NCBI GenBank assembly: GCA_965224345.1
Contig: CBDCYU010000003.1
Location: 905,748-969,747 of the forward strand
Origin: Dehalococcoidia bacterium
GTDB taxonomy: Bacteria; Chloroflexota; Dehalococcoidia; Lucifugimonadales; CBDCYU01
Length of the DNA stretch: 64,000 bases
Reading direction: 5' to 3'
Part shown: in pieces, positions 4,127 to 64,000 of the stretch
Numbering within the stretch: position 1 is the stretch's first letter
Layout: the number at the start of each line of letters is the position of its first letter
The notes under the pieces: generated by a model
What the model saw: the letters and a program-made list of their open reading frames with translations, nothing else
What the model was told of the DNA's origin: nothing
Database searches by the model: none
Made by a program: the position numbers and the translations under genes

Positions 4127-4320
4127 ACGGGCTGAAAGCATGATTCACTCGAGGCCCGTAGTGGCGTAGAGTGGCATAGGGAGCGGCTGGCAGCGCACCA
4201 GCCGCTCCTTTCTCGTTGAATGACCCCCGGCGATCCGGCGATCGGCGGGCGCCCGCGCTTCAAGATGACCGGCGATGTGCTACCATCGGGCACAACACAG
4301 GGCGCACCGAGCAGAGTGCT

Positions 4321-5526: not shown

Positions 5527-5529
5527 ACC

Positions 5530-44216: not shown

Positions 44217-44299
44217 CTGGAAGGGGACGCAAACCTATAATTCGACTTTGAGAGGCCCGCTAGAGACGGGGGGCACGCCTACGCAAGGGAGCCTCGGGG

Positions 44300-45289
44300 T
44301 TGCTGACCTACTTCTTACGCCGCGTCTTCATCGGATTGGGGACCCTATGGGTCGTCTCCGTAATCTCCTTCGCGATAATCCAGCTCCCCGCGGGCGACTT
44401 CATCACCTCGTATGTCGCGGGGCTGGAGATGTCGGGAGACCTCGTGACCATGGAGGAGGCCGAGGCGCTGCGCGAGGAGTACGGCCTCAACAGACCGATG
44501 TACGTCCAGTACTATAAGTGGATTAAGCAGATCGTAACCGGCAACTTCGGACTCTCGATGGAGTACGGGCTTCCCGTAGGCGAGGTCATCGGCGAACGGC
44601 TGATCATGACGATCATAGTAGCACTGGCGGCCGTCATATTCGTATGGGTGATGGCCCTGCCCATTGGAATCTACTCGGCGGTGAAGCAGTACTCGGTCGG
44701 CGACTACACCTTCACATTCTTGGGATTCCTGGGACTGGCGATCCCCAACTTCCTGCTGGCGCTGGTGCTGCTGTACTTCTCCTTCAAGTACCTCGATGCC
44801 AACGTCGCCGGGCTCTTCTCGCCCGAATACTTCAGGGCACCCTGGAGCTTAGCGCGAGTGTGGGACTTGCTGAAACACCTGTGGATACCGGCCCTGGTTC
44901 TCGGGACGGCGGGCACTGCCGCCCTGATTCGCATTATGCGCGCCAACCTACTGGACGAGCTCCGCAAGCCCTACGTCGTGGCTGCCCGGGCCCGGGGGCT
45001 GTCCGAGTGGAAGCTGGTCCTCAAGTACCCGGTCAGGGTAGCCCTTAACCCATTCGCCAGCACCATCGGCTACATCCTGCCCTACATCGTCTCGGGGAGC
45101 ATCATCGTGTCTGTGGTGCTGAGCCTGCCCACAGTGGGGCCGCTCCTGTTGAGATCGCTGCTTGCCCAGGACATGTTCCTTGCGGGCACCATCATCCTCC
45201 TGATAGGCGCCATGACCGTCGTGGGGACGCTGTTCTCGGACATGCTCCTGGTTTGGATCGACCCCCGAATCCGGTTCGGCGGAAGGTAG
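44300..45289 (+). CDS. Peptide-type ABC transporter permease (DppB/OppB-like)
   Basis: MLTYFLRRVFIGLGTLW, YVVAARARGLSEWKLVLKY, WIDPRIR. Confidence 0.9.
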   Translation: MLTYFLRRVFIGLGTLWVVSVISFAIIQLPAGDFITSYVAGLEMSGDLVTMEEAEALREEYGLNRPMYVQYYKWIKQIVTGNFGLSMEYGLPVGEVIGERLIMTIIVALAAVIFVWVMALPIGIYSAVKQYSVGDYTFTFLGFLGLAIPNFLLALVLLYFSFKYLDANVAGLFSPEYFRAPWSLARVWDLLKHLWIPALVLGTAGTAALIRIMRANLLDELRKPYVVAARARGLSEWKLVLKYPVRVALNPFASTIGYILPYIVSGSIIVSVVLSLPTVGPLLLRSLLAQDMFLAGTIILLIGAMTVVGTLFSDMLLVWIDPRIRFGGR

Positions 45290-45294
45290 GCTCC

Positions 45295-46422
45295 TTGGCG
45301 ACAGAGAGCATAGAGCTGATAGAGGACGCCGCCGAGGAGCGAGTCTACGTCGCTTCGCAGTGGCAGCTCATGTGGTGGCGGTTCCGAAGGCACCGCCCTG
45401 CCATGGTTGCCGGTGTAGTCATGCTGGGCTTCTACGCCGTTGCGCTTCTGGCCCCGTTCCTCGCCACCTCCCCACCGACGTCTGGGGAAGCCGACCGGTC
45501 GCTCATGCCTCCCCAGAGGATCCACTGGTTCGACGGCTGGAAACCCAGCCCCCACGTCTTCGCAGTCTCGGGCGAGCGGGACTTCGTTACCTTCAAGCGG
45601 ACGTACACCGTGGACGAGGAGACGAAGATACCAGTCCGGCTCTTCGGGCGAGGGTTCGACTACAAGGTCTTCTGGCTCATCCCTACGGACCGGCATCTCT
45701 TCGGTACGAAGGGCGCCAAGACCGAGGAGTCGATCTTCATCTTGGGGACCGACCTGCAGGGCAGGGACGTCTACTCGCGTCTGCTCTTCGCGACCCGCAT
45801 ATCGATGTCGATAGGGCTGGTGGGTGTTAGCCTCAGCCTCGTTCTGGGCATAATGCTGGGCGGAATCTCCGGCTTCTACGGAGGAGCCGTAGATACCGTC
45901 ATCCAGCGAGGGATCGAGATACTACGCTCCATTCCGACCATCCCGCTATGGATGGGCTTGGCGGCTGCGCTGCCCGGCGACTGGTCGGTGCTGAGGGTGT
46001 ACTTTGCCATCACGATAATCATCTCCGTCTTGGGCTGGACCGAGCTGGCCCGCGTGGTCCGCGGGAGGTTCCTGGCGCTGCGGGAGGAGGACTTCGTGAC
46101 CGCCGCCATGCTGTCGGGCGCCAGCCACACGCGGACGATATTCAGGCACATGGTGCCCTCCTTCTACAGCCATATCATCGCAGCCAGCACCCTGGCGATC
46201 CCGGAGATGATCATCAGTGAGACCGCCCTCAGCTTCCTGGGGCTGGGCCTCCAGCCCCCGGCCGTCAGCTACGGCGTGATGCTTCAGGCTGCCCAGAACA
46301 TCCAGTCCATCGCCCTTACCCCATGGCTGATGTTCCCCGCGATGCCGGTGATCTTCGTCGTCCTCGCCTTCAATTTCCTTGGCGACGGGCTGCGGGATGC
46401 AGCCGACCCATACGCCCAGTAG
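45295..46422 (+). CDS. Peptide-type ABC transporter permease (DppC/OppC-like)
   Basis: QWQLMWWRFRRHR, LGTDLQGRDVYSRLLFATRISM. TTG at 45295 after GGAAGG. The ORF-track start at 45253 is a frame shadow of the upstream gene end. Confidence 0.85.
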   Translation: MATESIELIEDAAEERVYVASQWQLMWWRFRRHRPAMVAGVVMLGFYAVALLAPFLATSPPTSGEADRSLMPPQRIHWFDGWKPSPHVFAVSGERDFVTFKRTYTVDEETKIPVRLFGRGFDYKVFWLIPTDRHLFGTKGAKTEESIFILGTDLQGRDVYSRLLFATRISMSIGLVGVSLSLVLGIMLGGISGFYGGAVDTVIQRGIEILRSIPTIPLWMGLAAALPGDWSVLRVYFAITIIISVLGWTELARVVRGRFLALREEDFVTAAMLSGASHTRTIFRHMVPSFYSHIIAASTLAIPEMIISETALSFLGLGLQPPAVSYGVMLQAAQNIQSIALTPWLMFPAMPVIFVVLAFNFLGDGLRDAADPYAQ

Positions 46423-47458
46423 CAGGCGCCAGTTGACCACAGACACCCAAACACTGCTATCGGTGCGAGGCCTGCGCACCCACTTCCCACTGGACGAGGG
46501 CACTGTCATCGCCGTCGACGGCGCCAGCTTCGACATTCAGGAGGGCAAGACCCTGGGCGTCGTGGGGGAGAGCGGCTGCGGCAAGAGCGTGACGGCCCGC
46601 TCAATCCTGGGGATCCTCGACCGGCCCGGACGCATAGTCGACGGCGAGATCCTCTTCCGGCGGCGCACCGGAGAGAACGGCTCGGAGGTGGTCGACCTGG
46701 CGGCCCTCGACCCGAATGGCGCGGAGATGCGCGGCATCCGGGGCAGTGAGATCGCCCTGGTCTTCCAGGAACCGATGTCCTCCTTCAGCCCCGTCCACAC
46801 CATCGGCACTCAGCTGGTAGAGGCCATCAAGCTCCACCGCAGAGTGAGCAGCAACGAGGCCCGGGACATCGGCATCGAAGCCCTGCGCTCGGTGGGCATC
46901 CCCTTCCCGGAGCAGCGCATCGACGCCTACTCCTTCGAGCTCAGTGGCGGCATCCGACAGCGTGCCATGATAGCTATAGCGCTGTCGTGCAACCCGAGCC
47001 TGCTCATCGCGGACGAGCCCACCACGGCCCTGGACGTGACGACGCAGGCCCAGATACTGGACCTGCTGCGCGGTCTTCAGCAGCAGTTCGGCATGGCCAT
47101 CATGCTGATAACCCACAACCTGGGCGTGGTCGCCGAGATGGCCGACGATGTGGTCGTCATGTATCTGGGTGAGGTCGTGGAGAGCGCGCCGGTGGACGAC
47201 ATCTTCTACAACCCAAAGCATCCGTATACCCGCGCGCTCCTCGAGTCGATCCCCAGCATAACGGCCGAGACGGGCCAGAAGCTCGCCTCCATCACCGGTA
47301 CGGTGCCGCACCCCTACCACAGACCCAGGGGCTGCCCCTTCAACCCTCGCTGCCCCTCCTTCATCTCCGGCAAATGCGACCAGGAGCCGCCCCGGCTGCT
47401 GCCCATAGCTCCCAACCACAGTGTCAGCTGCTTTCTCTACGAGAACGAGGCGGGGTAA
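46397..47458 (+). CDS. Peptide-type ABC transporter ATP-binding protein (DppD/OppD-like)
   Basis: GESGCGKSV, LSGGIRQRAMIAIAL, LIADEPTTALD, CPFNPRCP. Start is ATG 46397, or alternatively TTG 46433. Confidence 0.9.
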   Translation: MQPTHTPSSRRQLTTDTQTLLSVRGLRTHFPLDEGTVIAVDGASFDIQEGKTLGVVGESGCGKSVTARSILGILDRPGRIVDGEILFRRRTGENGSEVVDLAALDPNGAEMRGIRGSEIALVFQEPMSSFSPVHTIGTQLVEAIKLHRRVSSNEARDIGIEALRSVGIPFPEQRIDAYSFELSGGIRQRAMIAIALSCNPSLLIADEPTTALDVTTQAQILDLLRGLQQQFGMAIMLITHNLGVVAEMADDVVVMYLGEVVESAPVDDIFYNPKHPYTRALLESIPSITAETGQKLASITGTVPHPYHRPRGCPFNPRCPSFISGKCDQEPPRLLPIAPNHSVSCFLYENEAG

Positions 47459-51482: not shown

Positions 51483-52634
51483 GTCTCTTCACCGGTGTAC
51501 GGTCTGAATTGGCGGGAGCTAGAGGCAGTCGAAGTAATGGCTTATATAGCTATGACTCGCTGGGCGGGGCTCCAGCCCGTGTACCTTTCAGGCGTCTAGT
51601 CTGTCCAGCGACACCGCCCGAGTTCCCCTTGTGGCGCTGGGCCAAGCTAAGGGCCACGTTGCCGAAAGTGGCTCCGGCAAGGTGCCCCACCGTTGCCATG
51701 TTAGGCAACGTTCCCCTTAGGGTCAAGCCCCGTGGAACGCCGCGAAGCTCTCGGGCCGGAGGTCCACGGCGCCGTTTTCTGGGCCAAGACGACAAATATG
51801 GACACAGGCCCCCCCACGAAAAACGCCGCCCTGTCCGCCCTGGGCGGCGCGGATGGGAATCTCCGACGGATGAGGCCGCAATCATGGGCCAAACTCAAAG
51901 AAGTGCAGGGTCGCGGCCTCATCCCATCCCTCTCGCTCCACCAAGATTCTGCCTACAGCCTCATCTGACAACGAAGGGTCGGAAAACTCTGCGAAGTAGT
52001 TTACGAAGCAAGCCTTGCCTATGGACCGCAGTGTTCGTTCCAACTGATTGTCGTTCATCGGCCCTGGACGCTCTCCCCGTCCTACACTCCCACCGCCGGG
52101 ATTCCAGGTAGACGGGCTCTAGCTCATGGCGGTCGGCTATCGTAGGTGTATTGAAGCGCTTGCCCTCCAATATCTCGCTGGCCGTCAGCATCTGCATTCG
52201 GGGATACCCGACGCCTAGTATCTTCAACCATATGGTGGGGCCGGCCTTGTGGCTGGCCCAGGGGGGAGAACCCCCCGACCCCCGCCAATGGGATCGTACT
52301 TGGGGCTAGGGTTGTGTGTGAGAGAGAGGAAAAACCGCTGATATTATATAAAAAGGACTTCCAGGTTGGGATGGTCAACGCGCCCTATCGGGTCGTGCCC
52401 CGTTCGCAGTCGCGGCAGGCCCGCCCCGGCCGCATCAACACGTACGTCCCACCTGTCCGACTGGGTCGTGGGGATGAGTCGCCGCCGTCCCAGCAGCCGC
52501 CCGCACCGATCCCTCCCGAACGCTGACCCCAGGGCCTCGGCGAGTATGTGGGATTTCAGCGCCCTGTCATTTCTCTACAGCCCTCCGAAGTGGCGGCCCC
52601 TGACTCTCTCCTGAATCAGGACGATCTCGGGGAG

Positions 52635-52982
52635 CTACTGGCCGCGGGCAATAGCCTGGGCTTGCCGTCTCTTGGCCCGCTTCTCCTTACGCCGCCGGGC
52701 TTTGGCCCGTCGCTCCTGGACTATCTCTAGGACGCGGCGGTAGTTGGGGGCAGGTCGTTGGCCCGCTTCTAGGGCGGCGGCGCGATGGGACTGTGTGGCC
52801 TTTGCCATCGCAGCGTAGGGGTCCCGCAATTTCGCGCCCTGGTCATTGGTGAAGATTCCCGCCAGGCTCCTATCGGGTAGGGACGGGGGCGCTTCCCGCT
52901 TCCGGTCCCGTCGGTCTATCTTGGCCCGCACCTGGGTCTCGCGGGTGTCAAGGTCATGCCCATACCGCACGTCAGCCCCCAC
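52635..52982 (-). CDS. Hypothetical basic protein
   Basis: 115-aa ORF with G/C-rich third codon positions. Lys/Arg-rich C-terminus. No family recognised. Confidence 0.3.
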   Translation of the reverse strand: MGADVRYGHDLDTRETQVRAKIDRRDRKREAPPSLPDRSLAGIFTNDQGAKLRDPYAAMAKATQSHRAAALEAGQRPAPNYRRVLEIVQERRAKARRRKEKRAKRRQAQAIARGQ

Positions 52983-53145
52983 GGTCGAGGGCTGGCTCCC
53001 GCTAGGTACTGATCGAAACTCAGGGTCGCGGGTATGTCGCCGGAGCGGCGGGTGTCTCGGTAGCGTTGGCGCTTCCCAGCGCCGCCCCTAGCAGCCCCGG
53101 TAGTCCTGATAGGCCCGGAGGTCTTGGTCGTACTGGCGGTGTTCC

Positions 53146-53595
53146 TTGGGGGCCCTGCTCGATAAGACGGAGGGCCAGGTCAAGGGGATGAAGGGGGATC
53201 GTCGAACCGGCCTCAAGGGATTGAAGATGTCGCTGGACGGAGTGCGGAGGTACTATGCTCGAGAGCGTCGACTGGTGGAGCAGCGGCTCTTGGCTTTAGA
53301 AGCGGGCCGTGAGGGCACAGAGACCGGAGCACCCGGAGGTGATGGGAGTGGAGGCCCTGGGCCGAGAAGCGTCGCAGCCGGGACGGGGTTCCCGTGGAAG
53401 CTAACCGATCCAACCCTGACCGAGCTGGCGGATGCCGGGGAGCGGACGAGCGGGGTGGTCGACCGGGACACATCGGCGGCCGCCAGTGGTGACGAGAAAG
53501 CTGGTGCGCCCTCCGAGCCTGTGATTCCCGGGTCAGCTCAGGTGCCGCGGAGGAACGTCGCTCGCTCAGAATCAGTTGAGCACGATGTGGCCTAA
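53146..53595 (+). CDS. Hypothetical protein
   Basis: 149-aa ORF followed about 105 nt later by a strong hairpin terminator. No family recognised. Start uncertain. Confidence 0.3.
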   Translation: MGALLDKTEGQVKGMKGDRRTGLKGLKMSLDGVRRYYARERRLVEQRLLALEAGREGTETGAPGGDGSGGPGPRSVAAGTGFPWKLTDPTLTELADAGERTSGVVDRDTSAAASGDEKAGAPSEPVIPGSAQVPRRNVARSESVEHDVA

Positions 53596-53700
53596 GCAGG
53601 ATGAAATGACGCTGCTAACGGGTCCACGGTTAGACAACGGTTCGAGTGAGTATTGACACTGGAGAATGAGTCGTGGACTGGGAGACACTAGCTCGCAAAG

Positions 53701-53744
53701 AAAGAGGGGAAGGACACCGGGACCTGGGGTCCTTCCCCTCTTTA
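53701..53744. terminator. Bidirectional-looking rho-independent terminator
   Basis: AAA-AGAGGGGAAGGAC (53703-53715), 13-nt loop, GTCCTTCCCCTCT (53729-53741)-TTT. Confidence 0.6.
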
Positions 53745-53818
53745 CGTCCGTGTGTAGGCTTTCTCGTCGCGCAGGATATGAACCTAGCCTTCATTGTGCT
53801 TGGTGGGGTCGATGAAGA

Positions 53819-53847
53819 TTGACGACCAAAACCCGCACTTCTATACT
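53819..53847 (+). promoter_or_regulatory. Promoter of the candidate defence operon
   Basis: TTGACG (53819-53824), 17-nt spacer, TATACT (53842-53847), about 45 nt upstream of the HTH gene. Confidence 0.5.
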
Positions 53848-53891: not shown

Positions 53892-54122
53892 ATGGCGTCT
53901 GAAGAAGGTTGGGTCGGTATCGCTGACGTGGCTGCCCACCTGAGCGTAGCCAAAGACTCCATCTACTGTTGGGTCGACACCAAAGCCTTCCCAGCGCACA
54001 GGGTTGGAAGGCTCCTGCGCTTCCGGCTTTCAGAAGTGGACGAATGGGTAAGAACAGGAGGCGGGAGGGAATCCGGAAACCGAAAAGCTGGTAGGACTTC
54101 AACAGCGGATGGGCAAGACTAA
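53892..54122 (+). CDS. Excisionase/MerR-type helix-turn-helix DNA-binding protein
   Basis: IADVAAHLSVAKDSIYCWVDTKAFPAHRVGRLLRFRLSEVDEWV fits the HTH_17 pattern. GAGGAG RBS. Confidence 0.8.
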   Translation: MASEEGWVGIADVAAHLSVAKDSIYCWVDTKAFPAHRVGRLLRFRLSEVDEWVRTGGGRESGNRKAGRTSTADGQD

Positions 54123-54136
54123 CGAGTAGAGCATTC

Positions 54137-57100
54137 ATGCCGCGTATCTTCGACAACCTGGCGCCTGGCGCCAGTCTCCTGCCCGCGTTGCAGGAGACCT
54201 TGGAACTATCGTCGCGAGCAGACTTCTGCGTCGGCTACTTCAACCTGCGCGGCTGGAGTGGTCTTGCGCCGCTCGTGGACAGCTGGCAGCCGGAGGACGG
54301 ACCGTGCCGCGTCCTTATCGGGATGCAGCGACTTCCGCACGACGACCTCCGGGAGACCCTCAGCCTCGTTGATAGGCCCTCGGGCATGGACAACCAGACG
54401 GCGCATCGCCTCAGAGTCCAGTTGGCCGAACAGCTGCGCCAGCAGCTCACCATCGGTGCTCCTTCCAACGCCGACGAGCGGACCTTACGGCAGTTGGCTG
54501 CACAGCTTCGAGCCAAGAAGGTCATCGTCAAGCTCTTCCTCCGTCACCCCTTGCACGCGAAGCTCTATCTGCTGTTTCGCAACGATCCCATCAACCCCAT
54601 CGTCGGCTACCTGGGTAGCAGCAACCTAACCTTTGCGGGCCTTGCGGGACAGGGCGAGTTGAACGTGGACGTGCTCGACCACGACTCCGCTCTCAAGCTC
54701 AAGGGTTGGTTTGAAGACAGATGGAACGACCGCTTCTGCGTCGACATCACCGACGAGCTGCTTCAGATCATCGAAGATAGCTGGGCGCGGGAAGCGCTGA
54801 TACCGCCGTACCACGTCTACCTGAAGATGGCCTATCACCTTTCCCATGAAGCCCGGGCCGGTCTCGCCGAGTTCAGGATTCCCAAGGTCTTTGGCGACCG
54901 GTTGTTCGACTTCCAGGCCGCCGCGGTCAAGATCGCGGCCCATCACCTGAACAAGCGCAATGGCGTGCTCATCGGCGACGTAGTAGGACTGGGCAAGACC
55001 CTGATGGCGACCGCCGTCGCTCGTATCTTTGAGGACGACTACGGGCTGGAGACGCTGATCATCTGTCCCAAGAACCTCGTTTCCATGTGGGAGGACTACG
55101 CTCACGAATACGGGTTGCGGGCCAGGGTGATTTCCATTAGTCAGGTAATAGGCCAGTTGCCAACCCTTCGGCGGCATCGCTTAGTCGTCATTGACGAGAG
55201 TCACAACCTCCGCAACCGCGAGGGCCGCCGCTACCGTGCCATCCAGGAGTACGTCCGCGAGAACGAGAGCAAGTGCATCCTCCTATCGGCAACGCCCTAC
55301 AACAAGACGTATCTGGACCTGTCCAACCAGCTGCGCATCTTCGTCGAGGATGACCAGGACCTTGGCATCCGCCCCGAACGACTCCTCCGACAGTTGGGCG
55401 AGATCGAGTTCAGCAGGCGCCACCAGGCTTCGCCGCGCACCCTGGCGGCCTTTGACTTCAGCGAGTACGCCGACGACTGGCGCGACCTGATGCGCCTCTA
55501 CCTAGTGCGCCGCACCCGCAGCTTCATCCAGGACAACTACGCGGAGACGGAACAGGAGACAGGCAGGAAGTTCCTCACCTACGAGGACGGGACCCTCTCC
55601 TTCTTCCCTACCCGCGTGCCAAAGACGGTCAAGTTCACCATCGACGACTCCAACCCCAACGACCAGTACGCCAAGCTGTACTCGCCCAAGGTGGTCGACA
55701 TAGTAAAGGACCTGTACCTGCCCAGGTACGGCCTCGGCAATTACCTACTGGATAAACCAGCGACTCCACCCACCAAGGAAGAGGAGCGACAAATCGACGA
55801 CCTGTCTAGGGCTGGCAAGCGGCTCATCGGATTCTGCCGCACGAACCTGTTCAAACGCCTGGAGAGCAGCGGCGCGGCGTTTCTGCAGTCCGTCGAGCGG
55901 CACGTACTCCGCAACTATGTCTTCCTCCATGCCATCAGGCACGACCTGCCTCTACCCCTTGGCACGCAGGACGCCGAGATGCTGGACTCCCGCTTCACCG
56001 ACGAGGATGCAGACCAGGCGAAGGGTGCTCTCTTCGACCCTGACGACGACGAGCAGGAGGAGGGCCTTGAAGAGACTGGCCGCGCTTGGACTGCCGCCGA
56101 CTTCGAGGCGCGGGCAGCCCAGATATACGCCGAGTACGAGGGCCGCTACAGGCGCCGCTTCAAGTGGCTCCGCGCTGACCTATTCGAGAGCTCCCTTGAG
56201 AGCGAGCTTCAGTCAGACGCCGATGCCCTCCAAGCCATCCTGACGGATTACGGGGCGTGGGACCCCGCCAAAGACGCCAAGCTCGACGCACTCCACTCAC
56301 TGCTGACGGAGACCTTCTCGGATCGGAAGGCGCTGGTGTTCTCCCAGTTCGCCGACACGGTTCACTACCTGGAATCGCAACTCAAGAAGAGAGGGGTTGC
56401 GGACATGGCCGGCGTCACCGGCAGCTCCGCCGACCCCACGCAGTTGGCATGGCGATTCAGCCCGGACAGCAACCAGCGGCCGGGCCAGGGTAAACCGGAG
56501 CGGGAGCTTCGAGTCCTGGTCTCCACCGATGTACTCAGCGAGGGCCAGAACCTCCAGGACTCTCACGTCGTCGTGAACTACGACCTGCCCTGGGCCATCA
56601 TCCGCCTCATCCAGCGTGCGGGCCGCGTCGACCGCATCGGACAGAAGGCGGAGGAGATCCTCTGTCACTCTTTCCTGCCCGCCGAGGGTGTTGAGCGCAT
56701 CATTGACCTGCGCGGGCGGGTCCGGGACCGGCTCAGGGAAAACGCTGAGGTGGTCGGCGCGGACGAGGCGTTCTTCGAAGACGAGGACGACAGTCAAACT
56801 ATCGTCGACCTGTACCACGAACGCGCCGGCATCTTGGACGGCGACCCGGAAGGCGACGTAGACCTTGCGTCCCACGCCTACCAGATTTGGAAGAACGCCA
56901 TCGGTGCGGACCCGTCGCTGGCGAAGGCCGTGGCCGACTTGCCGGACGTCGTCTTCTCCTCGCGGCAGCACATGCCCATCGCCCAACGGCCCGAAGGCGT
57001 CCTCGTGTTCATGCGCACCGCCGATGGCAACGACGCCCTGGCCTACGTGGACCGGGAAGGCCGGAGCATCACTGAGTCGCAGCATGAAATCCTTTCAGCC

Positions 57101-57544
57101 GCCGAGTGCAGGCCCGACACCCCTGCGCAGCCTCACCACGAGAGCCACCACCAGCTCGTCGTAGAGGGCGTCAGGCACGTCGTCAGGGAGGAGAAGCGGG
57201 TCGGCGGCCAGCTGGGGCGGCCCTCCGGCGCCCGCTTCCGCACCTACACGCGCCTCAAGGCCTACGCTGATGCCATCAGGGGCCAGCTGTTCGACGTGGA
57301 GGCGCTGCACAAAGCCATCGACGACATCTACCGCTATCCCCTGCGCCAGTCGGCGGTCGATACGCTGAACCGGCAGCTGCGCAGCGGCGTCTCCGACGAC
57401 CAGTTGGCCGAAATCGTCATGTCCCTGCGCGAGGAGGACAGGCTCTGCCTGACCGGTGACGATGCCGCCGAGTCTCAGGAGCCGCAGATCATCTGCTCCC
57501 TGGGCCTGTTCGAGGCCGACGCGCAGCATGATGACGCTAATTGA
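54137..57544 (+). CDS. PLD-like (single HKD) nuclease domain fused to an SNF2-family helicase
   Basis: N-terminal LHAKLYLL...GSSNLT (nt 54554-54625). Helicase motifs GDVVGLGKT, VVIDESHNLRN, LLSATPYNK, QRAGRVDRIGQ. Confidence 0.9.
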   Translation: MPRIFDNLAPGASLLPALQETLELSSRADFCVGYFNLRGWSGLAPLVDSWQPEDGPCRVLIGMQRLPHDDLRETLSLVDRPSGMDNQTAHRLRVQLAEQLRQQLTIGAPSNADERTLRQLAAQLRAKKVIVKLFLRHPLHAKLYLLFRNDPINPIVGYLGSSNLTFAGLAGQGELNVDVLDHDSALKLKGWFEDRWNDRFCVDITDELLQIIEDSWAREALIPPYHVYLKMAYHLSHEARAGLAEFRIPKVFGDRLFDFQAAAVKIAAHHLNKRNGVLIGDVVGLGKTLMATAVARIFEDDYGLETLIICPKNLVSMWEDYAHEYGLRARVISISQVIGQLPTLRRHRLVVIDESHNLRNREGRRYRAIQEYVRENESKCILLSATPYNKTYLDLSNQLRIFVEDDQDLGIRPERLLRQLGEIEFSRRHQASPRTLAAFDFSEYADDWRDLMRLYLVRRTRSFIQDNYAETEQETGRKFLTYEDGTLSFFPTRVPKTVKFTIDDSNPNDQYAKLYSPKVVDIVKDLYLPRYGLGNYLLDKPATPPTKEEERQIDDLSRAGKRLIGFCRTNLFKRLESSGAAFLQSVERHVLRNYVFLHAIRHDLPLPLGTQDAEMLDSRFTDEDADQAKGALFDPDDDEQEEGLEETGRAWTAADFEARAAQIYAEYEGRYRRRFKWLRADLFESSLESELQSDADALQAILTDYGAWDPAKDAKLDALHSLLTETFSDRKALVFSQFADTVHYLESQLKKRGVADMAGVTGSSADPTQLAWRFSPDSNQRPGQGKPERELRVLVSTDVLSEGQNLQDSHVVVNYDLPWAIIRLIQRAGRVDRIGQKAEEILCHSFLPAEGVERIIDLRGRVRDRLRENAEVVGADEAFFEDEDDSQTIVDLYHERAGILDGDPEGDVDLASHAYQIWKNAIGADPSLAKAVADLPDVVFSSRQHMPIAQRPEGVLVFMRTADGNDALAYVDREGRSITESQHEILSAAECRPDTPAQPHHESHHQLVVEGVRHVVREEKRVGGQLGRPSGARFRTYTRLKAYADAIRGQLFDVEALHKAIDDIYRYPLRQSAVDTLNRQLRSGVSDDQLAEIVMSLREEDRLCLTGDDAAESQEPQIICSLGLFEADAQHDDAN

Positions 57545-57587
57545 CTCGTTCGCCTTACCCGATTATCATAAACGTAAGGAGGAAGCT

Positions 57588-57839
57588 ATGATTGTCAAGA
57601 TTACCTCGAAGCGTCAGGTCACCTTCCCCAAACACGTTCTCGACGAGCTGGGCGTGGGGCCCGGCGACCGACTGGAGCTGCTGGAAGGACCCGACGGCTT
57701 CACCCTGCGCCCCAAGCGGATCGACTACTCCAAGCTGGGCACACTTCGCGACAAGATACGGCCCGGAACCCCACCCTTCGACATCCGCAAGTTCAGGGAC
57801 GAACGGGAGCAGGGGCATGGCCCAGCGCTACGGCGTTGA
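57588..57839 (+). CDS. vapB: AbrB/MazE/SpoVT-family antitoxin
   Basis: MIVKITSKRQVTFPKHVLDELGVGPGDRLEL. AAGGAGG RBS. Overlaps the PIN gene by 23 nt. Confidence 0.8.
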   Translation: MIVKITSKRQVTFPKHVLDELGVGPGDRLELLEGPDGFTLRPKRIDYSKLGTLRDKIRPGTPPFDIRKFRDEREQGHGPALRR

Positions 57840-58215
57840 CACCTCGGTCCTCGTCAGGCTGGTCGCACGCGAGCCGCAAGCAGACTTCGAGCGCTGTGTG
57901 CGCCGTCTTGGCGCCTTGGTGGAGGAGCAGAGATGCGAGATATTGGCGTCCAACCAGGCGATAGGCGAGGCCTACGCCGCATTGATTCACCACTACGACA
58001 TGGCTAGCGCCGACGCCCGCGCAGGTCTCCTGGATGCACTGACCAGCGGCCTCGTAGCGCCCCTGAACGGCCAGGCCGTCATAGAGGCCCTCTCTGCCTC
58101 CGGCGGCCCCGGACTCTTCGACCGCCTCATCGCCGACGACTACGCCCGCGCCGAGCTGGAGACGCTGACCCTGGACCAGCAGATGGCCTCCCTGGCCGAC
58201 GCGCGGCTTCTTTAG
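57817..58215 (+). CDS. vapC: PIN-domain toxin
   Basis: YGVDTSVLVRL (first Asp), AIGEAY (Glu), FDRLIADDYARAELETLTLDQQ (D.LIA..A....L.T.D pattern). Confidence 0.8.
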   Translation: MAQRYGVDTSVLVRLVAREPQADFERCVRRLGALVEEQRCEILASNQAIGEAYAALIHHYDMASADARAGLLDALTSGLVAPLNGQAVIEALSASGGPGLFDRLIADDYARAELETLTLDQQMASLADARLL

Positions 58216-58224
58216 GAGACGGAT

Positions 58225-61200
58225 ATGCCGGTTTCCATTGAAGAGCTACGGCCCCACCTACAGGCCTTTGACTTTCCGCGTCTCTTCATCGAGGGGCTGG
58301 GCTGGGACCACTTCCAAGTCGAGCCGCTAGTCCTGCCGGTTGACGGCCACGAGTACGCGCTCAAGCCCGTGGCGGAAAAGGCACAGTTCGCAGTCTTTGA
58401 GTGTGCCCCTGGACCCGACGGTGCTATACCGGGGTACCCGGTGCGGCGCAAGATCGAGACGCAGGTCACAAAGCGGACCTTCGAGCACCTCATCATCTTT
58501 GTCGATTCCGAGCGCAAGCAGCAGGTTTGGCAATGGGTTAAGCGACAGGCTGGCAAACCCACCGCCTGCCGGGAGCACCGGTTCGACTCGGGCCAGACAG
58601 GGCAGCCCCTGTTGCAGCGCCTCGATAGCTTCATCTTCACCCTGGAGGACGAGGCCAAGGGCATCGGCATTGGCGACGTCACAACCGGTGTAGGCAAGGC
58701 TTTCGACGTTGAGAGGGTCACCAAGCGCTTCTACGACCGGTTCCGCACCGAGCTCACCGCCTTCGGGAAGTTCATCGAGGGCATAACCGCCCAGGGCGAC
58801 CGAGACTGGTACGCCTCCCTGATGCTCAATCGCATGATGTTCGTTTACTTCGTCCAGAAGCAGGGTTTCCTGGATGGCAACACCGACTACCTTCGCACCA
58901 AGCTGCGCCAGGTCCAGACCGGGTATGGCGACGGTCGCTTCCAACAGTTTTATCGCGAGTTTCTTCTGAAGCTGTTCCACGATGGTCTGGGGCGGCCGGT
59001 GGACCAGCGCAACGAGGAACTAAAGGACCTCCTGGGCGAGGTTCCCTTCCTCAACGGCGGCCTCTTCGACGTTCACGACCTGGAGCGGGACAACCCCGAC
59101 ATCCAGATCCCCGACGACGCCTTCCGGCGCGTCTTCGACTTCTTCGACGACTACCGCTGGCACCTGGACGAGCGCCCTCACGGGGAGGACAACGAGATCA
59201 ACCCCGATGTCCTCGGCTACATCTTCGAGAAGTACGTCAACCAGAAGCAGATGGGCGCCTACTACACCAAGGAGGACATCACCGGCTACATCTCCCGCAA
59301 CACGGTCATCCCCTTCCTGTTCGACGCCGCAAGGAAGGAGTGCCGGGTGGCCTTCGAGCCGAACGGCGGCGTCTGGCGGCTGCTGCGGGACGACCCCGAC
59401 CGCTACATCTACCCGGCCGTCGGCCACGGCGTAACCTGGAACGCCCGCGACGCCCATAACCCAACTCCCCTCGACTCGCCCTTCGATTTGCCCGACGACA
59501 TAGCCGCCGGTATCGACGACGTGTCCCAGCGCGGCGGCTGGAACAGCCCCGCGCCCGACGACTGCGCCCTGCCAACCGAGACCTGGCGAGAGGTGGTCGC
59601 TCGTCGCTCACGCTACGCCGAGGTCCGGGGCCAGCTCGAGGCGGGCGAGGTCCGGGAAATCAACGACCTCGTCACGCTGAACCTGGACGTCGAGCGGTTC
59701 GCCCAGGACGTCATCGCCCAGAGCGAAGGGCCGGAGCTCCTGCGCGCCTTCTGGCACGCCATGCGCGACGTATCCGTCCTCGACCCCACCTGCGGCTCCG
59801 GCGCCTTCCTGTTCGCCGCCCTCAACATCCTCGAACCCCTCTACACCGCCTGCCTGGAGGGGATGCGCGGCTTCCTGGACGACGCCGCAAGGTCCGAGCG
59901 CAAGCGCGGCCCCGGCTATCTCAACGACTTCAAGCGTGTCCTGGCCCAGGTCGAAGAGCATCACAGCGAGCGCTACTTCATCCTCAAGTCTATCGTCCTC
60001 AACAACCTCTACGGCGTCGACATCATGGAAGAGGCCGTAGAGATCTGCAAGCTGCGCCTCTTCCTGAAGCTCGTCGCCCAGCTCGAGACCTACGACCAGA
60101 TCGAGCCGCTGCCGGACATCGACTTCAACATCCGCGCCGGCAACACGCTGGTGGGCTTCACCTCCCTGGACGCCGTGCGCCAGGCCATGACCATCACGCC
60201 CGACGGCCAATACCGTGCCGTAGACGCCGAACAGCAGGCGGCGCTCGCCCGCATAGAGGAGAAGGCAGAAGAGGCAGACCGGCAGGCAGGCCGATTCAGA
60301 GACCAACAGACCACGCACGGCGGCGAGATAACCCCTCAGCACAAGGCCGAACTGCGCGGGCGGCTGCGCGCCCTGGCGGACGAGCTGGACCGCTACCTGG
60401 CCAAGGAGTCCGGCAAGCACAACGTCAAGCCCAAGGACCCCAAGAACCCCACGCCCCAAGAAGCCAAGACGAAGTGCGACAGGGACTCCTCCACCCACGA
60501 TGCCTATCCGTGCTGGCGCGACAGCCACCGGCCCTTCCACTGGTTCGCCGAGTTCTACGGCATCATGAGCAAGGGCGGCTTTGACGTGGTGATCGGTAAC
60601 CCGCCGTACGTATCCAGGCGAAAGGTAGCCGAGTCGTATACGCCGAAGGGATTTCGGACTGCGGGGTGTCCAGACATATACGCCACCGTCGTAGAGCGAA
60701 GCGTCAACGTTTGCCGGTCCGGCGGACGGACAAGCATGATCGTGCCCCTGAGCCTTGCGTTTAGTTCAAGATTCACCAGCCTGCGCACCTACCTACATGG
60801 GGAGTGCAATTCGCTTTGGTTCTCATCCTTTGGGCGTATACCATCCGCACTCTTCAGTTTCGATACTAGGGTACGCAACACGATCTATCTGCCTCGTAAG
60901 TCTTCAAGGTCGCCGAAGCGCAGCTTCACGACACGGCTTCACAGATGGTTCGACTCTCAGCGTCCGACCCTGTTCGACGGCTTGTCGTACTCACCGTTCT
61001 CCCCGTCAGCGTTTGGTGGGCTGATTCCCAAGCTGGGTAGTGCCCATCTCCTACAGGGATTCGAGTCACTGCTGGAGGGTAGCGGCTACCGACTCGAGAA
61101 CGAGCTCGCCCCGTCGCGGCAGGGGCACCACCTTCACTTCAAGCAGACGGCCTACAACTGGCTGACGTTCTGTGTCGACCAACCGCCAGTGTATGGACCT

Positions 61201-61629
61201 GCCAATAGTCCCATCAGCCAGACTCAGTACGCGACCATACGTTTCCGACAGGAAGAGGACAGAGATCTGTCCTTGCTGATAGCGAACGGTCTGCTGATGT
61301 TCACCTGGTGGGTCGCCATCGGAGACGACTTTCACCTAACGCAGAGCAACTTTGCGACTGCTCCCTTTGGGATGGGCCAACTGAACGAAGACCAGCGCCG
61401 ACACCTCTCAGCCCTTCTGCCTGAATTGGAACAGGCAATGAATAAGAACCTGGTGTTCAAGCTGAACGCGGGCAAGAACATCGGCAACTACAACCTCGCC
61501 AGATGCCGTCGCGTCACGGACAAGGTAGACAAAGCGTGGCTGGAAGCCGTCGGCCTAAGCGACCTGTGGGAAGACATTGAGTTGGAGCACGCGTTGGTCG
61601 TGCGGACATCGTTCGAGGACGGGGAGTAG
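58225..61629 (+). CDS. Large Eco57I/PglX-like N6-adenine DNA methyltransferase with uncharacterised N-terminal domain and C-terminal TRD-like region
   Basis: Motif I VLDPTCGSGAFLFAAL (about nt 59779-59815). PFHWFAEF...GGFDVVIGNPPYV (NPPY at 60598-60609). 1134 aa. AGGAGA RBS. Confidence 0.9.
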   Translation: MPVSIEELRPHLQAFDFPRLFIEGLGWDHFQVEPLVLPVDGHEYALKPVAEKAQFAVFECAPGPDGAIPGYPVRRKIETQVTKRTFEHLIIFVDSERKQQVWQWVKRQAGKPTACREHRFDSGQTGQPLLQRLDSFIFTLEDEAKGIGIGDVTTGVGKAFDVERVTKRFYDRFRTELTAFGKFIEGITAQGDRDWYASLMLNRMMFVYFVQKQGFLDGNTDYLRTKLRQVQTGYGDGRFQQFYREFLLKLFHDGLGRPVDQRNEELKDLLGEVPFLNGGLFDVHDLERDNPDIQIPDDAFRRVFDFFDDYRWHLDERPHGEDNEINPDVLGYIFEKYVNQKQMGAYYTKEDITGYISRNTVIPFLFDAARKECRVAFEPNGGVWRLLRDDPDRYIYPAVGHGVTWNARDAHNPTPLDSPFDLPDDIAAGIDDVSQRGGWNSPAPDDCALPTETWREVVARRSRYAEVRGQLEAGEVREINDLVTLNLDVERFAQDVIAQSEGPELLRAFWHAMRDVSVLDPTCGSGAFLFAALNILEPLYTACLEGMRGFLDDAARSERKRGPGYLNDFKRVLAQVEEHHSERYFILKSIVLNNLYGVDIMEEAVEICKLRLFLKLVAQLETYDQIEPLPDIDFNIRAGNTLVGFTSLDAVRQAMTITPDGQYRAVDAEQQAALARIEEKAEEADRQAGRFRDQQTTHGGEITPQHKAELRGRLRALADELDRYLAKESGKHNVKPKDPKNPTPQEAKTKCDRDSSTHDAYPCWRDSHRPFHWFAEFYGIMSKGGFDVVIGNPPYVSRRKVAESYTPKGFRTAGCPDIYATVVERSVNVCRSGGRTSMIVPLSLAFSSRFTSLRTYLHGECNSLWFSSFGRIPSALFSFDTRVRNTIYLPRKSSRSPKRSFTTRLHRWFDSQRPTLFDGLSYSPFSPSAFGGLIPKLGSAHLLQGFESLLEGSGYRLENELAPSRQGHHLHFKQTAYNWLTFCVDQPPVYGPANSPISQTQYATIRFRQEEDRDLSLLIANGLLMFTWWVAIGDDFHLTQSNFATAPFGMGQLNEDQRRHLSALLPELEQAMNKNLVFKLNAGKNIGNYNLARCRRVTDKVDKAWLEAVGLSDLWEDIELEHALVVRTSFEDGE

Positions 61630-61642
61630 CGACACTTCTCAA

Positions 61643-62176
61643 ATGCTGAACCTGTTCGCCAAAACCCTGCTAGCATCAACCTCCTTAACTCCCGTACTCG
61701 GTGCTATGGCTGTAACTGATATTGAGCATTGCGAGCCATGGACTCGTTGGATTTGGTGGATTCTCGGAGCTATGCTCCTAGTGGCTATCTGCTGGGCACT
61801 ACTAGAATACCAAGCTCGAAATGGCCAGAAGGAATTGATTACCATCAAGGAGTTTGAACGAAGAGACCAAGAGGTGCTTGTGTTCCTCTTCATCTACCTG
61901 CTGCCGTTCCTTAGGTCGACCGACCCTATGTTCTCCCCACAATTGCTGACGGGTGGCTACATATTGGCCATCATTGTTCTTGCTATCGCGGATGCCGGTG
62001 CCTTCCACTTCAACCCGGTCATGCGTTTGCTCAGGTTTCGCTTTTATTCCATTAAAACGCAAGATGGTCTGTCCAGCCTACTTATCAGCAAGAGGGAACT
62101 GCGTCGCCTATGCGAGATTGAAACTGTAAGTCTTAGTCGGAACATCTACTTGTACACAGGAGCCTCTTATGCTTGA
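61643..62176 (+). CDS. Four-TM membrane protein of unknown function
   Basis: ATG 13 nt after the MTase stop. Helices WIWWILGAMLLVAICWALL, VLVFLFIYLLPFL and GGYILAIIVLAIADAGAF, plus a weaker N-terminal one. About 50-aa soluble tail. About 50% GC. Confidence 0.7.
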   Translation: MLNLFAKTLLASTSLTPVLGAMAVTDIEHCEPWTRWIWWILGAMLLVAICWALLEYQARNGQKELITIKEFERRDQEVLVFLFIYLLPFLRSTDPMFSPQLLTGGYILAIIVLAIADAGAFHFNPVMRLLRFRFYSIKTQDGLSSLLISKRELRRLCEIETVSLSRNIYLYTGASYA

Positions 62177-62510
62177 GAACTTCCATCTAGCGGCTATCCT
62201 CAGACAAGGAACACACACGTACTTGCGGCAGATACGGCTCCACCAAAATCTGCAAGGTACTCTTGCCGAGAGTTGGGAAGGACAATTTCTGCAATTCACT
62301 ACTGGCATTGAAGAGGTCGATTTTGATCCGGGCTACCGGCCTGAGCGACACGAGCGTTTCCGATTGAGTGACTACATGCCTCCCGAATGGCTAGCAAAGG
62401 AAACTAGCCAGACCATTCAACATCTCGGTCTACTAGACAGTGAGACACGACTGCTCGATTCCATCACTGGCATCGTGGGAATGGCGAGAGATGGCAAGGG
62501 GAGGAATTGA
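62169..62510 (+). CDS. Hypothetical protein (possible N-terminal part of a split gene)
   Basis: ATG overlaps the upstream stop by 8 nt. 113 aa. Its stop overlaps the next start (TGATG). Confidence 0.55.
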   Translation: MLENFHLAAILRQGTHTYLRQIRLHQNLQGTLAESWEGQFLQFTTGIEEVDFDPGYRPERHERFRLSDYMPPEWLAKETSQTIQHLGLLDSETRLLDSITGIVGMARDGKGRN

Positions 62511-62974
62511 TGTTATTTCAGAATTTCACGCATTCTCGAGTGATCCGGCCGGGCCGGTTCCTGCTCCTTGGCGGCGGCGATACCTACGTTAGTCCCGAAC
62601 GACCAGGATTGACTCTTGATGCAAAATTGAGTGCTGTTTATCAGCCCGCCCTTAGCAAATTGCTGTTCGTCAACCTTCGAACCGTCAACACTTTCCTGCC
62701 GTTACTTGACCTTTACAAGGAAGCAACGGAGGAGGATATCCGAGAAGTATTAAGTCACGACAGACTAGCAGCTGAGGACCTAGATGCTTCGGCCACCGAC
62801 ACCAATCAATGGTTCGCCAAACGAATAACTATGCTCAGAGATTCGAGAGTCCTAGACCAATTTTCTGCCGATCAAATCAAAGCGCGTTCCGTCGGGCATA
62901 GCGTATCCATTGCAATCCTAGAGGACAAGATTGATTCCCTCGTAACAAGTCATGGGCGAGGGTATTGGAAGTGA
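62507..62974 (+). CDS. Hypothetical protein (possible C-terminal part of a split gene)
   Basis: ATG at 62510 overlaps the upstream TGA. 154-155 aa. About 43-48% GC. Confidence 0.55.
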   Translation: MMLFQNFTHSRVIRPGRFLLLGGGDTYVSPERPGLTLDAKLSAVYQPALSKLLFVNLRTVNTFLPLLDLYKEATEEDIREVLSHDRLAAEDLDASATDTNQWFAKRITMLRDSRVLDQFSADQIKARSVGHSVSIAILEDKIDSLVTSHGRGYWK

Positions 62975-63028: not shown

Positions 63029-64000
63029 ATGTTTCAAGCACGGGAACCGCAGGAGAGCCTGTGGCAGTCGGAGTTTCTGATCACGCCGAGGAAGGCGAAG
63101 CTGATGCGGAGGAGCTGGGCGGAGGTGTTCCGGAACGAGGCTCTGGTTCTGATAGAGGAGGAGCGGTTCGCTCCGCTGTACAGCCCGGACATGGGCAGGC
63201 CCAATCGCGCCGTGCAGACGGTGCTGGGAGTGCTGGTGCTCAAGGAGATGTTCGATCTGACGGACATGGAGGCGTTGGAAGAGTTGGAGTTCAATCTGCT
63301 GTGGCACCACGCGCTGCGGCTGGAGATGGAGGAGGCGCATCTTGCCCAGAAGACGCTGCACAACTTCCGTGTGCGGTTGATGGAGCACGACGGGGGGCGA
63401 TTGGCCTTCTGCGAGACAACGGACCGGATGATAGAGGCCCTGGGACTGCGAACAGGCAAGCAGCGCCTGGACTCGACGCACGTCATGAGCAATATCGCGG
63501 TGTTGACGCGGTTGGGTCTGTTCTGCGAGACGGTCCGAGTGTTCCTGTTAGCGGTGAGCCGTGAGCACCCTGGTCTGGGTGAAGGGATTGGGGATGGTCT
63601 GGCCCAGCGGTACCTCAAGGAGACCGGCGAAGCATCGGGGTACGAGGACGCACGTTCAGGTGAGGGGCGTCGCCGGCTGTCAGTGTGTGCGCGAGACGTG
63701 TACCGGCTGGTGGATAGGTTCCGTGGGACGGCGGTGGCAAAGATGGAGGAGTACGGGCTGTTGGAGAGGCTATTGGGGGAGCAGTGCCACGTGGGCCGTC
63801 ACAGGGACGGTCGTCCCGGAGCCGATGACGACGATGCGGCAGAGGGTAAGGTGCCGATCGCGCTGAAGGAGGCGAAGGAGGTGCGGTCGTACTCTATGCA
63901 GACGCCCCACGACCCGGAGGTGACCTACAGCGGACACAAGGGGAAGGGGTACGAGGTGCAGGTGTCTGAGACGTGCGAAGAGGGGAACGCCGTGCAGATG
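63029..64000 (+). CDS. DDE transposase, IS5/IS1182-superfamily with DUF772-type N-terminal domain (partial, runs off window end)
   Basis: Hand translation from ATG 63029 stays open to nt 64000. YSPDMGRPNRAVQTVLGVLVLKEMFDLTDMEALEELEFNLLWHHAL, KQRLDSTHVMSNIA, DPEVTYSGHKGKGYEVQV. Confidence 0.8.
   Translation, partial: MFQAREPQESLWQSEFLITPRKAKLMRRSWAEVFRNEALVLIEEERFAPLYSPDMGRPNRAVQTVLGVLVLKEMFDLTDMEALEELEFNLLWHHALRLEMEEAHLAQKTLHNFRVRLMEHDGGRLAFCETTDRMIEALGLRTGKQRLDSTHVMSNIAVLTRLGLFCETVRVFLLAVSREHPGLGEGIGDGLAQRYLKETGEASGYEDARSGEGRRRLSVCARDVYRLVDRFRGTAVAKMEEYGLLERLLGEQCHVGRHRDGRPGADDDDAAEGKVPIALKEAKEVRSYSMQTPHDPEVTYSGHKGKGYEVQVSETCEEGNAVQM

Follow-up and report, generated by a model that had tools for sequence, protein, structure and literature searches.

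Does a gene for an SNF2 motor fused to a nuclease domain, followed on the same strand by a gene for a large N6-adenine methylase, encode a defence system in its own right, or parts of one already named? The question is raised by a locus near the 3' end of a 64,000-nucleotide stretch of a Dehalococcoidia bacterium genome (contig CBDCYU010000003.1; hereafter the window, with positions counted from its first letter), where an initial annotation, made from the sequence alone, had proposed that the methylase marks self DNA and that the SNF2 motor brings a PLD-type (HKD) nuclease to unmarked DNA. Our analysis shows that the two large genes are a conserved pair, which probably forms a two-subunit, ATP-dependent restriction-modification system, and we infer that this working model is the best reading of the locus. 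The two genes are:

54137-57544, forward strand: gene for the HKD(PLD)-SNF2 protein, 1135 amino acids (aa) (open-reading frame list, Pfam)
58225-61629, forward strand: gene for the N6-adenine methylase, 1134 aa (Pfam, PADLOC)

Both open-reading frames, and a third for a small helix-turn-helix (HTH) protein described further below, lie at the positions and on the strand given by the initial annotation, and every motif that it quoted is found in the translations (LHAKLYLL, GSSNLT, GLGKT, DESH, SAT, QRAGRVDRIGQ, DPTCGSGAF, FDVVIGNPPY and IIFVDSERK).

Conservation of the gene pair

The HKD-SNF2 profile retrieved 80 loci (one genome per species), to which one further locus was added, giving 81 loci from Chloroflexota, Acidobacteriota, Desulfobacterota, Proteobacteria, Gemmatimonadota, Poribacteria, Cyanobacteria, Bacteroidota, Verrucomicrobiota, Deinococcota and other phyla, the nearest being Dehalococcoidia metagenome-assembled genomes with an HKD-SNF2 protein 88-90% identical to that of the window. 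Six of the 81 loci end at a contig edge, the remaining 75 extend at least 400 nt past the SNF2 gene and were taken as informative. In every one of the 75, a methylase homologue complete with the N-terminal domain (N-domain) lies beside the SNF2 gene, immediately downstream on the same strand in 74 and upstream in one. The reverse test began from 80 metagenome loci seeded by methylase N-domain motifs alone (motifs drawn from a narrow alignment), 68 of which had at least 600 nt upstream, and in 67 of these 68 an HKD-SNF2 gene lay directly upstream of the N-domain methylase. With the two large genes side by side in practically every informative locus, whichever of them the search began from, they are a real functional pair and not neighbours by chance; the initial annotation had made its model depend on their co-localising in other genomes, which they do.

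The pair is also found on 47 plasmids, and on plasmids of Synechocystis, Pelobacter and Rhodococcus its two genes abut or overlap at identities down to ~41%, the Rhodococcus plasmid methylase retaining the N-domain (hhalign probability 99.6%). Relatives of HKD-SNF2 number in the thousands, with full-length homologues in more than 15 phyla; none of full length was found in phage records. Clustering of all flanking open-reading frames in the 81 loci revealed no other universal partner. The one other conserved neighbour is a DprA/Smf-like gene (Pfam DNA_processg_A) of 150-250 aa, present in 22 loci and in 19 of 45 informative ones (~42%); it always shares the strand of the methylase and lies 3' of it, at a distance between -3 nt and 6.3 kb (for example L001 18226-18861, L007 16714-17349, L044 16934-17491, L033, L037 and L040, with 16 more loci). 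This gene may be an optional third component; the window, which stops 2.4 kb past the methylase gene, lacks it.

The motor-nuclease and the methylase

In the HKD-SNF2 protein, Pfam detected PLDc_2/RE_NgoFVII (aa 112-196), SNF2-rel_dom and Helicase_C domains, the PLD-like domain scoring under the gathering score of PLDc_2 and exactly at that of RE_NgoFVII, whilst ResIII matched the DEAD-box segment only. In PADLOC the protein matched the 'HKD+Snf2' model (2.8e-48), with DrmD, BrxHII, HmaA and DpdE weaker; this model (C3a139 HKD+Snf2) was derived from genes surveyed in the vicinity of type III CRISPR loci and stands for no defined defence system (PMC6546367). The nearest sequence relative of the motor in the PDB is RapA. 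Two features of the protein were followed through an alignment of homologues:

54554-54625, forward strand: single HKD motif, H140-x-K142 ... G160-S-S-N163
54866-56776, forward strand: SNF2 motor, about aa 244-880, with Walker A GLGK287T, DESH353-356 and motif VI QRAGRVDR

The profile comprised 42 full-length representatives sharing 34-61% identity. Residues H140, K142, G160, S161, S162 and N163 were invariant in all 42, down to 34% identity, as were G284, G286, K287, D353, E354, H356, Q826, R827, G829, R830, D832 and R833 of the motor. Position 147, which holds the Asp of a canonical HKD motif, was His in 57% of the homologues and otherwise Phe or Tyr, and never Asp; the Phe that the initial annotation had noticed here is therefore a trait of the whole family. 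That H, K and N of the motif never vary argues for catalysis.

The third protein of the initial annotation had been described as an Eco57I/PglX-type methylase, a description upheld by Pfam (Eco57I, 1.5e-25, and MmeI_Mtase) and by structure. The best PADLOC model was REase_MTase_IIG (PDLC03628, E = 1.6e-269, 895 bits, aa 11-1064). A PDB sequence search with the methylase gave no match, yet in a Foldseek search with the full-length model the BREX protein PglX/BrxX (8c45) came first (E = 3e-8), followed by CamA, M.TaqI, M.BseCI, DrdV and LlaGI. Each of these proteins is an adenine methylase of the gamma class with its recognition domain at the C-terminus. The layout of the protein is an N-domain, a helical region, a gamma-class N6-adenine methylase domain, in which motif I precedes NPPY, and a C-terminal region resembling a target-recognition domain (TRD):

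58225-58704, forward strand: family-specific N-domain, aa 1-160 (AlphaFold2 model, alignment)
59722-60834, forward strand: catalytic core, about aa 500-870, with motif I DPTCGSG and motif IV NPPY (alignment)
60835-61626, forward strand: C-terminal TRD-like region, about aa 871-1134 (variability, model)

Residues D520, P521, C523, G524, S525, G526, N792, P793, P794 and Y795 of the catalytic core were invariant in 38 homologues. The C-terminal TRD-like region was the most variable part of the protein, with a mean top-residue frequency of 0.59 versus 0.84-0.92 in the helical and catalytic parts, and was modelled confidently (pLDDT, the model's own per-residue confidence score, ~85-93). From these features the 1134-aa protein is the predicted modification-and-specificity subunit.

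The N-domain, which the initial annotation had left uncharacterised, was found in every HKD-SNF2 partner examined. The AlphaFold2 model of the N-terminal 165 residues was confident (pLDDT 91) and shows an alpha-beta-beta-beta-alpha-beta element, however, its best Foldseek match in the PDB reached only E = 0.079, in a library that held MmeI-family, DrdV, LlaGI and PglX structures; among the weak top matches are the nuclease domain of SPARDA and a protein described as 'putative restriction endonuclease domain'. Pfam scans of 34 diverse members and a PDB profile search gave no match. Across these 34 sequences only L20, W27 and W102 were invariant, and no polar residue was; K52, E78, H88 and D94 were often replaced, and several charged residues appear conserved among close relatives only. 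We considered a PD-(D/E)XK nuclease built on the D...ExK of IIFVDSERK and rejected it, as E96 and K98 vary even among close relatives, where the consensus reads D-A-x-R-T. Judged by its residue profile, the N-domain looks like a binding or scaffold domain and not an enzyme, and we propose that it is a docking domain for HKD-SNF2. The only N-domain seen outside a methylase was in L024 (~4319-5785), where a 488-aa protein, made of an N-domain paralogue fused to sigma-70 regions 2 and 4, is encoded between the SNF2 and methylase genes; this fusion hints that the N-domain is a protein- or DNA-binding module able to couple to transcription. Because the methylase N-domain has neither conserved catalytic residues nor a structural nuclease match, HKD-SNF2 is the likely restriction subunit, combining a nuclease with a double-stranded DNA translocase.

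Proposed mechanism, known systems and rival explanations

The mechanism that we infer involves docking of the two subunits, translocation, cleavage dependent on collision or dimerisation, and defence against phages. The C-terminal TRD-like region of the methylase would read a short asymmetric sequence, and its gamma-class domain would place N6-methyladenine (m6A) on one adenine of one strand. HKD-SNF2 would serve as the restriction subunit, an SNF2 translocase on double-stranded DNA carrying a single N-terminal HKD nuclease half-site, and the non-catalytic N-domain of the methylase would dock it, so that restriction would be licensed only where the methylase occupies an unmethylated site. ATP hydrolysis would power translocation along double-stranded DNA, and since one HKD motif is half an active site, cleavage would need two HKD-SNF2 molecules, which would meet as complexes converge from oppositely oriented sites. 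In Nuc and BfiI, likewise, proteins with one HKD motif build an active site only by dimerising. The two-molecule requirement would also keep freshly replicated, hemimethylated host DNA from being cut, the logic of Type III and Type ISP enzymes.

The closest link to published experiments is the plasmid pSYSX of Synechocystis PCC 6803, which carries the same cassette (L162, 43486-51513), with an SNF2 protein (gene at 43696-47151) 52% identical to HKD-SNF2 of the window and a methylase, Slr6050 (M.Ssp6803IV), 42% identical from end to end, N-domain included. Hagemann et al. (PMC6105098) tentatively assigned Slr6050 the motif GA(m6A)GGC by elimination, which can be marked on one strand only because the complementary strand has no adenine; they could not segregate the slr6050 knockout and called the gene essential, studying Slr6050 alone and leaving the upstream nuclease-helicase gene out of consideration. 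The failed knockout is what one would predict if, once methylation is lost, a still active partner nuclease can attack the genome; post-segregational killing by such a restriction partner would account for both observations.

Compared with established systems, the pair would work, by analogy, most like Type ISP or Type III enzymes, although its membership features place it outside both. Type ISP enzymes recognise asymmetric sites, methylate one strand and cleave when two translocating enzymes converge. Like LlaGI and LlaBIII of that type, the pair combines a nuclease, an SF2-type translocase on double-stranded DNA, a gamma-class N6-adenine methylase and a TRD, it differs in being split over two polypeptides, in having an HKD/PLD half-site and not an Mrr-type PD-(D/E)XK nuclease, in its RapA-like SNF2 motor and in the extra N-domain. 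Type III systems hemimethylate asymmetric sites, and their cleavage needs two inversely oriented sites. They too divide methylase and specificity from an SF2 ATPase and nuclease between two genes, and the one-strand motif tentatively assigned to Slr6050 fits this logic; here, however, the restriction gene precedes the methylase gene, the methylase is gamma-class with a C-terminal TRD whereas Mod is beta-class with an internal one, the nuclease is an N-terminal HKD domain whereas Res carries a C-terminal PD-(D/E)XK, and the motor is SNF2/RapA-like. CglI and NgoAVII consist of a PLD nuclease R protein and an SF2 helicase H/N protein. They share with the pair a PLD nuclease dependent on an ATP-hydrolysing helicase, but here one polypeptide holds both nuclease and motor, a B3-like DNA-binding domain is absent, specificity would come from the methylase-TRD protein, and the mark would be m6A and not 5-methylcytosine.

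With Type IIG enzymes the methylase shares the Eco57I and MmeI_Mtase matches, the layout of N-domain, helical region, methylase and TRD, and the structural match to DrdV; it departs from them in having no recognisable N-terminal nuclease domain or catalytic motif and in its partner, an HKD-SNF2 ATPase-nuclease that is obligatory on genomic evidence (75/75 and 67/68 loci), whereas Type IIG enzymes act without an ATPase partner. Assignment of the pair to an already characterised system would speak against the model of the initial annotation, and PADLOC does assign the methylase half to Type IIG at 1.6e-269; in our view this label goes by architecture only, and taken literally it would mean that the methylase carries its own nuclease, whereas its N-domain has no nuclease signature.

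DISARM, BREX, Hma and MADS membership was rejected, their defining partners being absent. The initial annotation had set the locus apart from DISARM, BREX, Type I and Type ISP systems, to none of which it indeed belongs, and had noted that DrmA/DrmB and PglZ/BrxC/BrxL are absent from it; by Pfam, PADLOC and NCBIfam, neither these (DrmB being DUF1998; DrmA and DUF1998 were sought in the operon and among the large open-reading frames) nor DUF499 are in the window, nor do they recur in the 81 loci, and the DUF499 ATPase, DUF3780, DrmA/B/C, PglZ/BrxC and YprA helicase are likewise neither present nor conserved. The single match to the DrmA model is the helicase C-lobe inside the SNF2 protein, and the PADLOC scores for DrmD, HmaA and BrxH stem from this C-lobe only. 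As regards class 1 DISARM, DrmD matched aa 557-874 only (114.8 bits in PADLOC; in NCBIfam 135 bits, where the cut-off is 610), DrmMI reached 1.7e-26 versus 1.6e-269 for the Type IIG model, and the PLD domain is fused and not a stand-alone DrmC; the DrmD and DrmMI matches are related domains, not equivalogs. NCBIfam scores for the BREX methylase PglX were 30-76 bits against cut-offs of 400-900. For MADS, MAD1 scored 56.9 bits (cut-off 80) and MAD2 16 bits (cut-off 720), with no other mad genes. Hma/Type-2 BR systems feature a DUF499 AAA+ ATPase, DUF3780 and a COG1743-type methylase (PMC12839542, PMC7641849), and their helicase, the predicted effector, carries the same N-terminal HKD fusion (PMC12839542); the methylase here is Eco57I-type, DUF499 and DUF3780 had no match in the window, and that of HmaA was weak and partial (2.2e-22). 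A RapA-like SNF2 protein with an N6-adenine methylase also occurs in BREX type 3 (BrxHII and PglXI), class 1 DISARM (DrmD and DrmMI) and ARMADA, where ArmA and ArmB form an SNF2 and PglX-like methylase module (PMC12458937), and ArmB and PglX are structural kin of our methylase.

Three other explanations of the pair were weighed. The 1134-aa protein could be a self-sufficient Type IIG enzyme of MmeI/Eco57I kind with a divergent PD-(D/E)XK N-domain, and HKD-SNF2 an auxiliary, backup or separate nuclease-helicase travelling with it. The PADLOC model spanning nearly the whole protein (1.6e-269), an alpha-beta-beta-beta-alpha-beta element compatible with a restriction-endonuclease-like fold, the weak Foldseek matches to the SPARDA nuclease domain and the 'putative restriction endonuclease domain' protein, and the weak HSDR_N similarity that Hagemann et al. 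(PMC6105098) reported in Slr6050 all point that way, but the 34 N-domains have no conserved D...(D/E)XK and no invariants beyond L20, W27 and W102, no Foldseek match falls below E = 0.05 and no Pfam or PDB profile matches, and an optional accessory would not co-occur in 75/75 and 67/68 loci with translationally coupled spacing; we regard this explanation as unlikely. Equally unlikely, in our judgement, is an exclusion mechanism like that of BREX or DISARM, in which the PglX-like methylase marks self, SNF2 blocks replication of the invader or remodels it, and the HKD domain only binds or nicks. It would suit a methylase whose closest solved relatives are BREX PglX/BrxX, a RapA-like SNF2 protein that scores with the DrmD, BrxHII, HmaA and DpdE models, and the recurrence of SNF2 plus PglX-like methylase modules in BREX-3, DISARM-1, ARMADA and Hma; PglZ/BrxC and DrmA/DrmB, however, are absent from the window and not conserved in the 81 loci, the strict invariance of H, K and N in the motif favours catalysis, and HKD-SNF2 of Type-2 BR/Hma has been read as a nuclease effector (PMC12839542).

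Less probable still is that the methylase is an epigenetic regulator, phase-variable in the manner of a 'phasevarion', with SNF2 acting in RapA-like repair or transcription and neither protein in defence. Programmed inversions in Cj0031-like genes with an adjacent PLD-SNF gene (PMC9881135), the serine recombinase genes flanking the pair on two plasmids and the relation of the motor to RapA would accord with it, yet phase variation is equally typical of restriction specificity genes, and the invariant fused nuclease motif, the setting in defence islands and on plasmids, and the slr6050 deletion that did not succeed all fit a toxic restriction partner better.

Several observations weigh against the two-subunit restriction-modification reading itself. 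The full-length methylase model is of moderate quality (pLDDT 72.7), the motif of Slr6050 was assigned by elimination, and the 'essentiality' of its gene may have other causes. The PADLOC Type IIG label and the HSDR_N similarity reported by Hagemann et al. (PMC6105098) leave some room for a divergent nuclease in the N-domain. The DprA-like gene of ~42% of loci has no role in a two-subunit model, and the N-domain is less conserved than SNF2 among close relatives (in L002, SNF2 is 90% and the N-domain only 58% identical), which a tight docking interface does not obviously predict. Like the initial annotation, which was aware of no experimental characterisation of the fusion paired with such a methylase, we found no test of the pair in the literature, with cleavage, ATPase activity, interaction and phage protection shown for no member; the pairing has nevertheless been listed in passing (PMC9881135) and a tentative motif and an 'essential' phenotype reported for Slr6050 (PMC6105098).

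Whether the two-subunit system also deserves a type of its own is a more tentative matter: the pair is possibly, in an estimate that falls a little short of our trust in restriction-modification as such, a distinct, unnamed ATP-dependent type, in which a PglX-like methylase-TRD protein, having lost or never possessed a nuclease, recruits HKD-SNF2 through a novel N-terminal adaptor, the minimal free-standing form of the SNF2-plus-methylase module, with the junction between the genes a recurrent landing site for toxin-antitoxin and abortive-infection cargo. The HKD-SNF2 effector fusion itself has already been described (Type-2 BR, PMC12839542) and the pair is a variant of ATP-dependent restriction-modification. 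Nothing here is categorically new; it extends Type I, III and ISP ideas to a widespread and mis-annotated pair. NCBI PGAP, for example, labels the SNF2 protein 'helicase-related protein' and the methylase 'DNA methyltransferase'. If the two-subunit reading is true, many 'Type IIG', 'DNA methyltransferase' and 'helicase-related' entries in PADLOC and PGAP would be halves of one ATP-dependent system, and methylome motifs and defence repertoires would read differently, for instance in Synechocystis PCC 6803 and on the Rhodococcus, Nostoc and Pelobacter plasmids. An SNF2 nuclease-motor paired with a PglX-like methylase would also offer a simple model for self/non-self discrimination by a module that is found inside BREX, DISARM, ARMADA and Hma, whose mechanisms remain debated.

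Cargo slot, possible specificity exchange and surroundings

In the window the pair belongs to an operon of five co-directional genes, which includes an embedded toxin-antitoxin pair. Besides the two large genes it comprises:

53819-53847, forward strand: promoter-like site TTGACG-17-TATACT before the operon (consensus scan, 10/12; consensus match only)
53892-54122, forward strand: HTH_17 gene, 76 aa (open-reading frame list)
57541-57569, forward strand: promoter-like site TTGACT-17-TATCAT before the toxin-antitoxin cassette (consensus scan, 10/12; consensus match only)
57588-57839, forward strand: AbrB/MazE-type antitoxin gene, 83 aa (Pfam MazE_antitoxin 9.3e-11, NCBIfam AbrB 2.1e-9)
57817-58215, forward strand: PIN-like toxin gene, 132 aa (Pfam PIN 9.7e-4, 20.2 bits, below the cut-off of 23.6)

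The initial annotation had described three tightly spaced genes driven by a single promoter. The promoter-like site at 53819-53847 is where it was placed, but a single promoter is not established, because a second such site precedes the toxin-antitoxin cassette and could drive the methylase independently of the nuclease gene. Nor is the spacing tight throughout: a 680-bp gap (57545-58224) separates the two large genes, and the AbrB/PIN pair within it had been overlooked. The antitoxin ATG is preceded by the Shine-Dalgarno sequence AAGGAGG, the two small genes overlap by 23 nt and the PIN stop lies 9 nt before the methylase ATG, an overlap and layout typical of type II toxin-antitoxin pairs.

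This slot is filled recurrently and by different genes. In L001, a close relative, nothing is inserted and only 12 nt separate the large genes, whereas in this window and in ~25% of the loci (18/75 from genomes, 17/67 from metagenomes) 390-1850 nt sit exactly between them (for example in L004, L010, L017, L018, L025, L027, L032, L034, L036, L039, L040, L047, L049, L059, L075 and L076). The cargo differs by locus and includes PIN/VapB/AbrB toxin-antitoxin genes, PDDEXK_3, KilA-N, Schlafen/AlbA_2 with HATPase_c_4, OLD-like AAA_15/21 ATPase, DUF3800, Uma2 and a 23S-rRNA-IVP four-helix protein. PIN or VapC cargo occupies the same slot in L004, L017 and Synechocystis pSYSX, the last holding an independently acquired VapC PIN toxin with an upstream DUF2281-like antitoxin candidate. 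The AbrB/PIN pair of the window is thus embedded cargo, one case of a recurrent insertion and not part of the core. Such insertions are reminiscent of the PrrC type in Type I operons, and cargo insertion between core genes bears on how defence islands are assembled.

A core role for the HTH protein was rejected. Its identity as the excisionase-type HTH of the initial annotation holds (HTH_17, Pfam 5.6e-12; its NCBIfam MAD1 match, as given above, lies below the cut-off), its membership of a conserved system does not, as jackhmmer and clustering recovered a homologue 5' of SNF2 in just 6 of 71 loci; these searches found no other recurring family of small upstream genes in the 71 loci. The HTH protein is probably a lineage-specific regulator.

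Amongst close relatives, the two large genes have diverged to different degrees. Where SNF2 is ~90% identical, the methylase is only 60-80% identical and its C-terminal 260 residues are the most variable; in L001-L003 and L023, compared with the window, an SNF2 identity of ~90% goes with N-domains 58-88% and whole methylases 58-73% identical. This contrast implies that whole methylase genes may have been exchanged between otherwise near-identical systems, and the pattern of a conserved motor (R) subunit with variable specificity resembles that of Type I systems. On two plasmids, those of Rhodococcus and Pelobacter, the pair has a small serine recombinase gene beside it (L163, 13060-13608, and L164, 6142-6699). 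Taken with the published programmed inversions in Cj0031-like methylase genes next to a PLD-SNF gene (PMC9881135), these neighbours suggest phase-variable specificity in some members.

The first ~51.5 kb of the window encode solute-binding proteins, oligopeptide ABC ATPases and sulfatases, with no PADLOC match among them. From the last of the sulfatase genes to the operon, ~2.3 kb (51500-53800) hold no open-reading frame with a Pfam or PADLOC match, and a GC-rich stem-loop lies at 53703-53741, just 5' of the first promoter-like site. On the other side, the methylase is followed by a Kiwa remnant, in which KwaA is intact (61643-62176), whilst KwaB is split by a frameshift near 62507 (62169-62510 and 62507-62974) and ends early, at about residue 250 of 290, with the last ~40 residues gone. 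Next to it an insertion sequence (IS)-type transposase open-reading frame (63029-64000, IS5/IS1182-like with a DUF772 N-terminal domain) continues past the window end, and this element probably caused the KwaB truncation. GC content falls from ~0.64 to ~0.52 across the Kiwa/transposase stretch. The cassette therefore lies at the edge of a small defence island, adjoined by the Kiwa genes; in related loci the neighbours include Hachiman, Abi and DUF262 genes.

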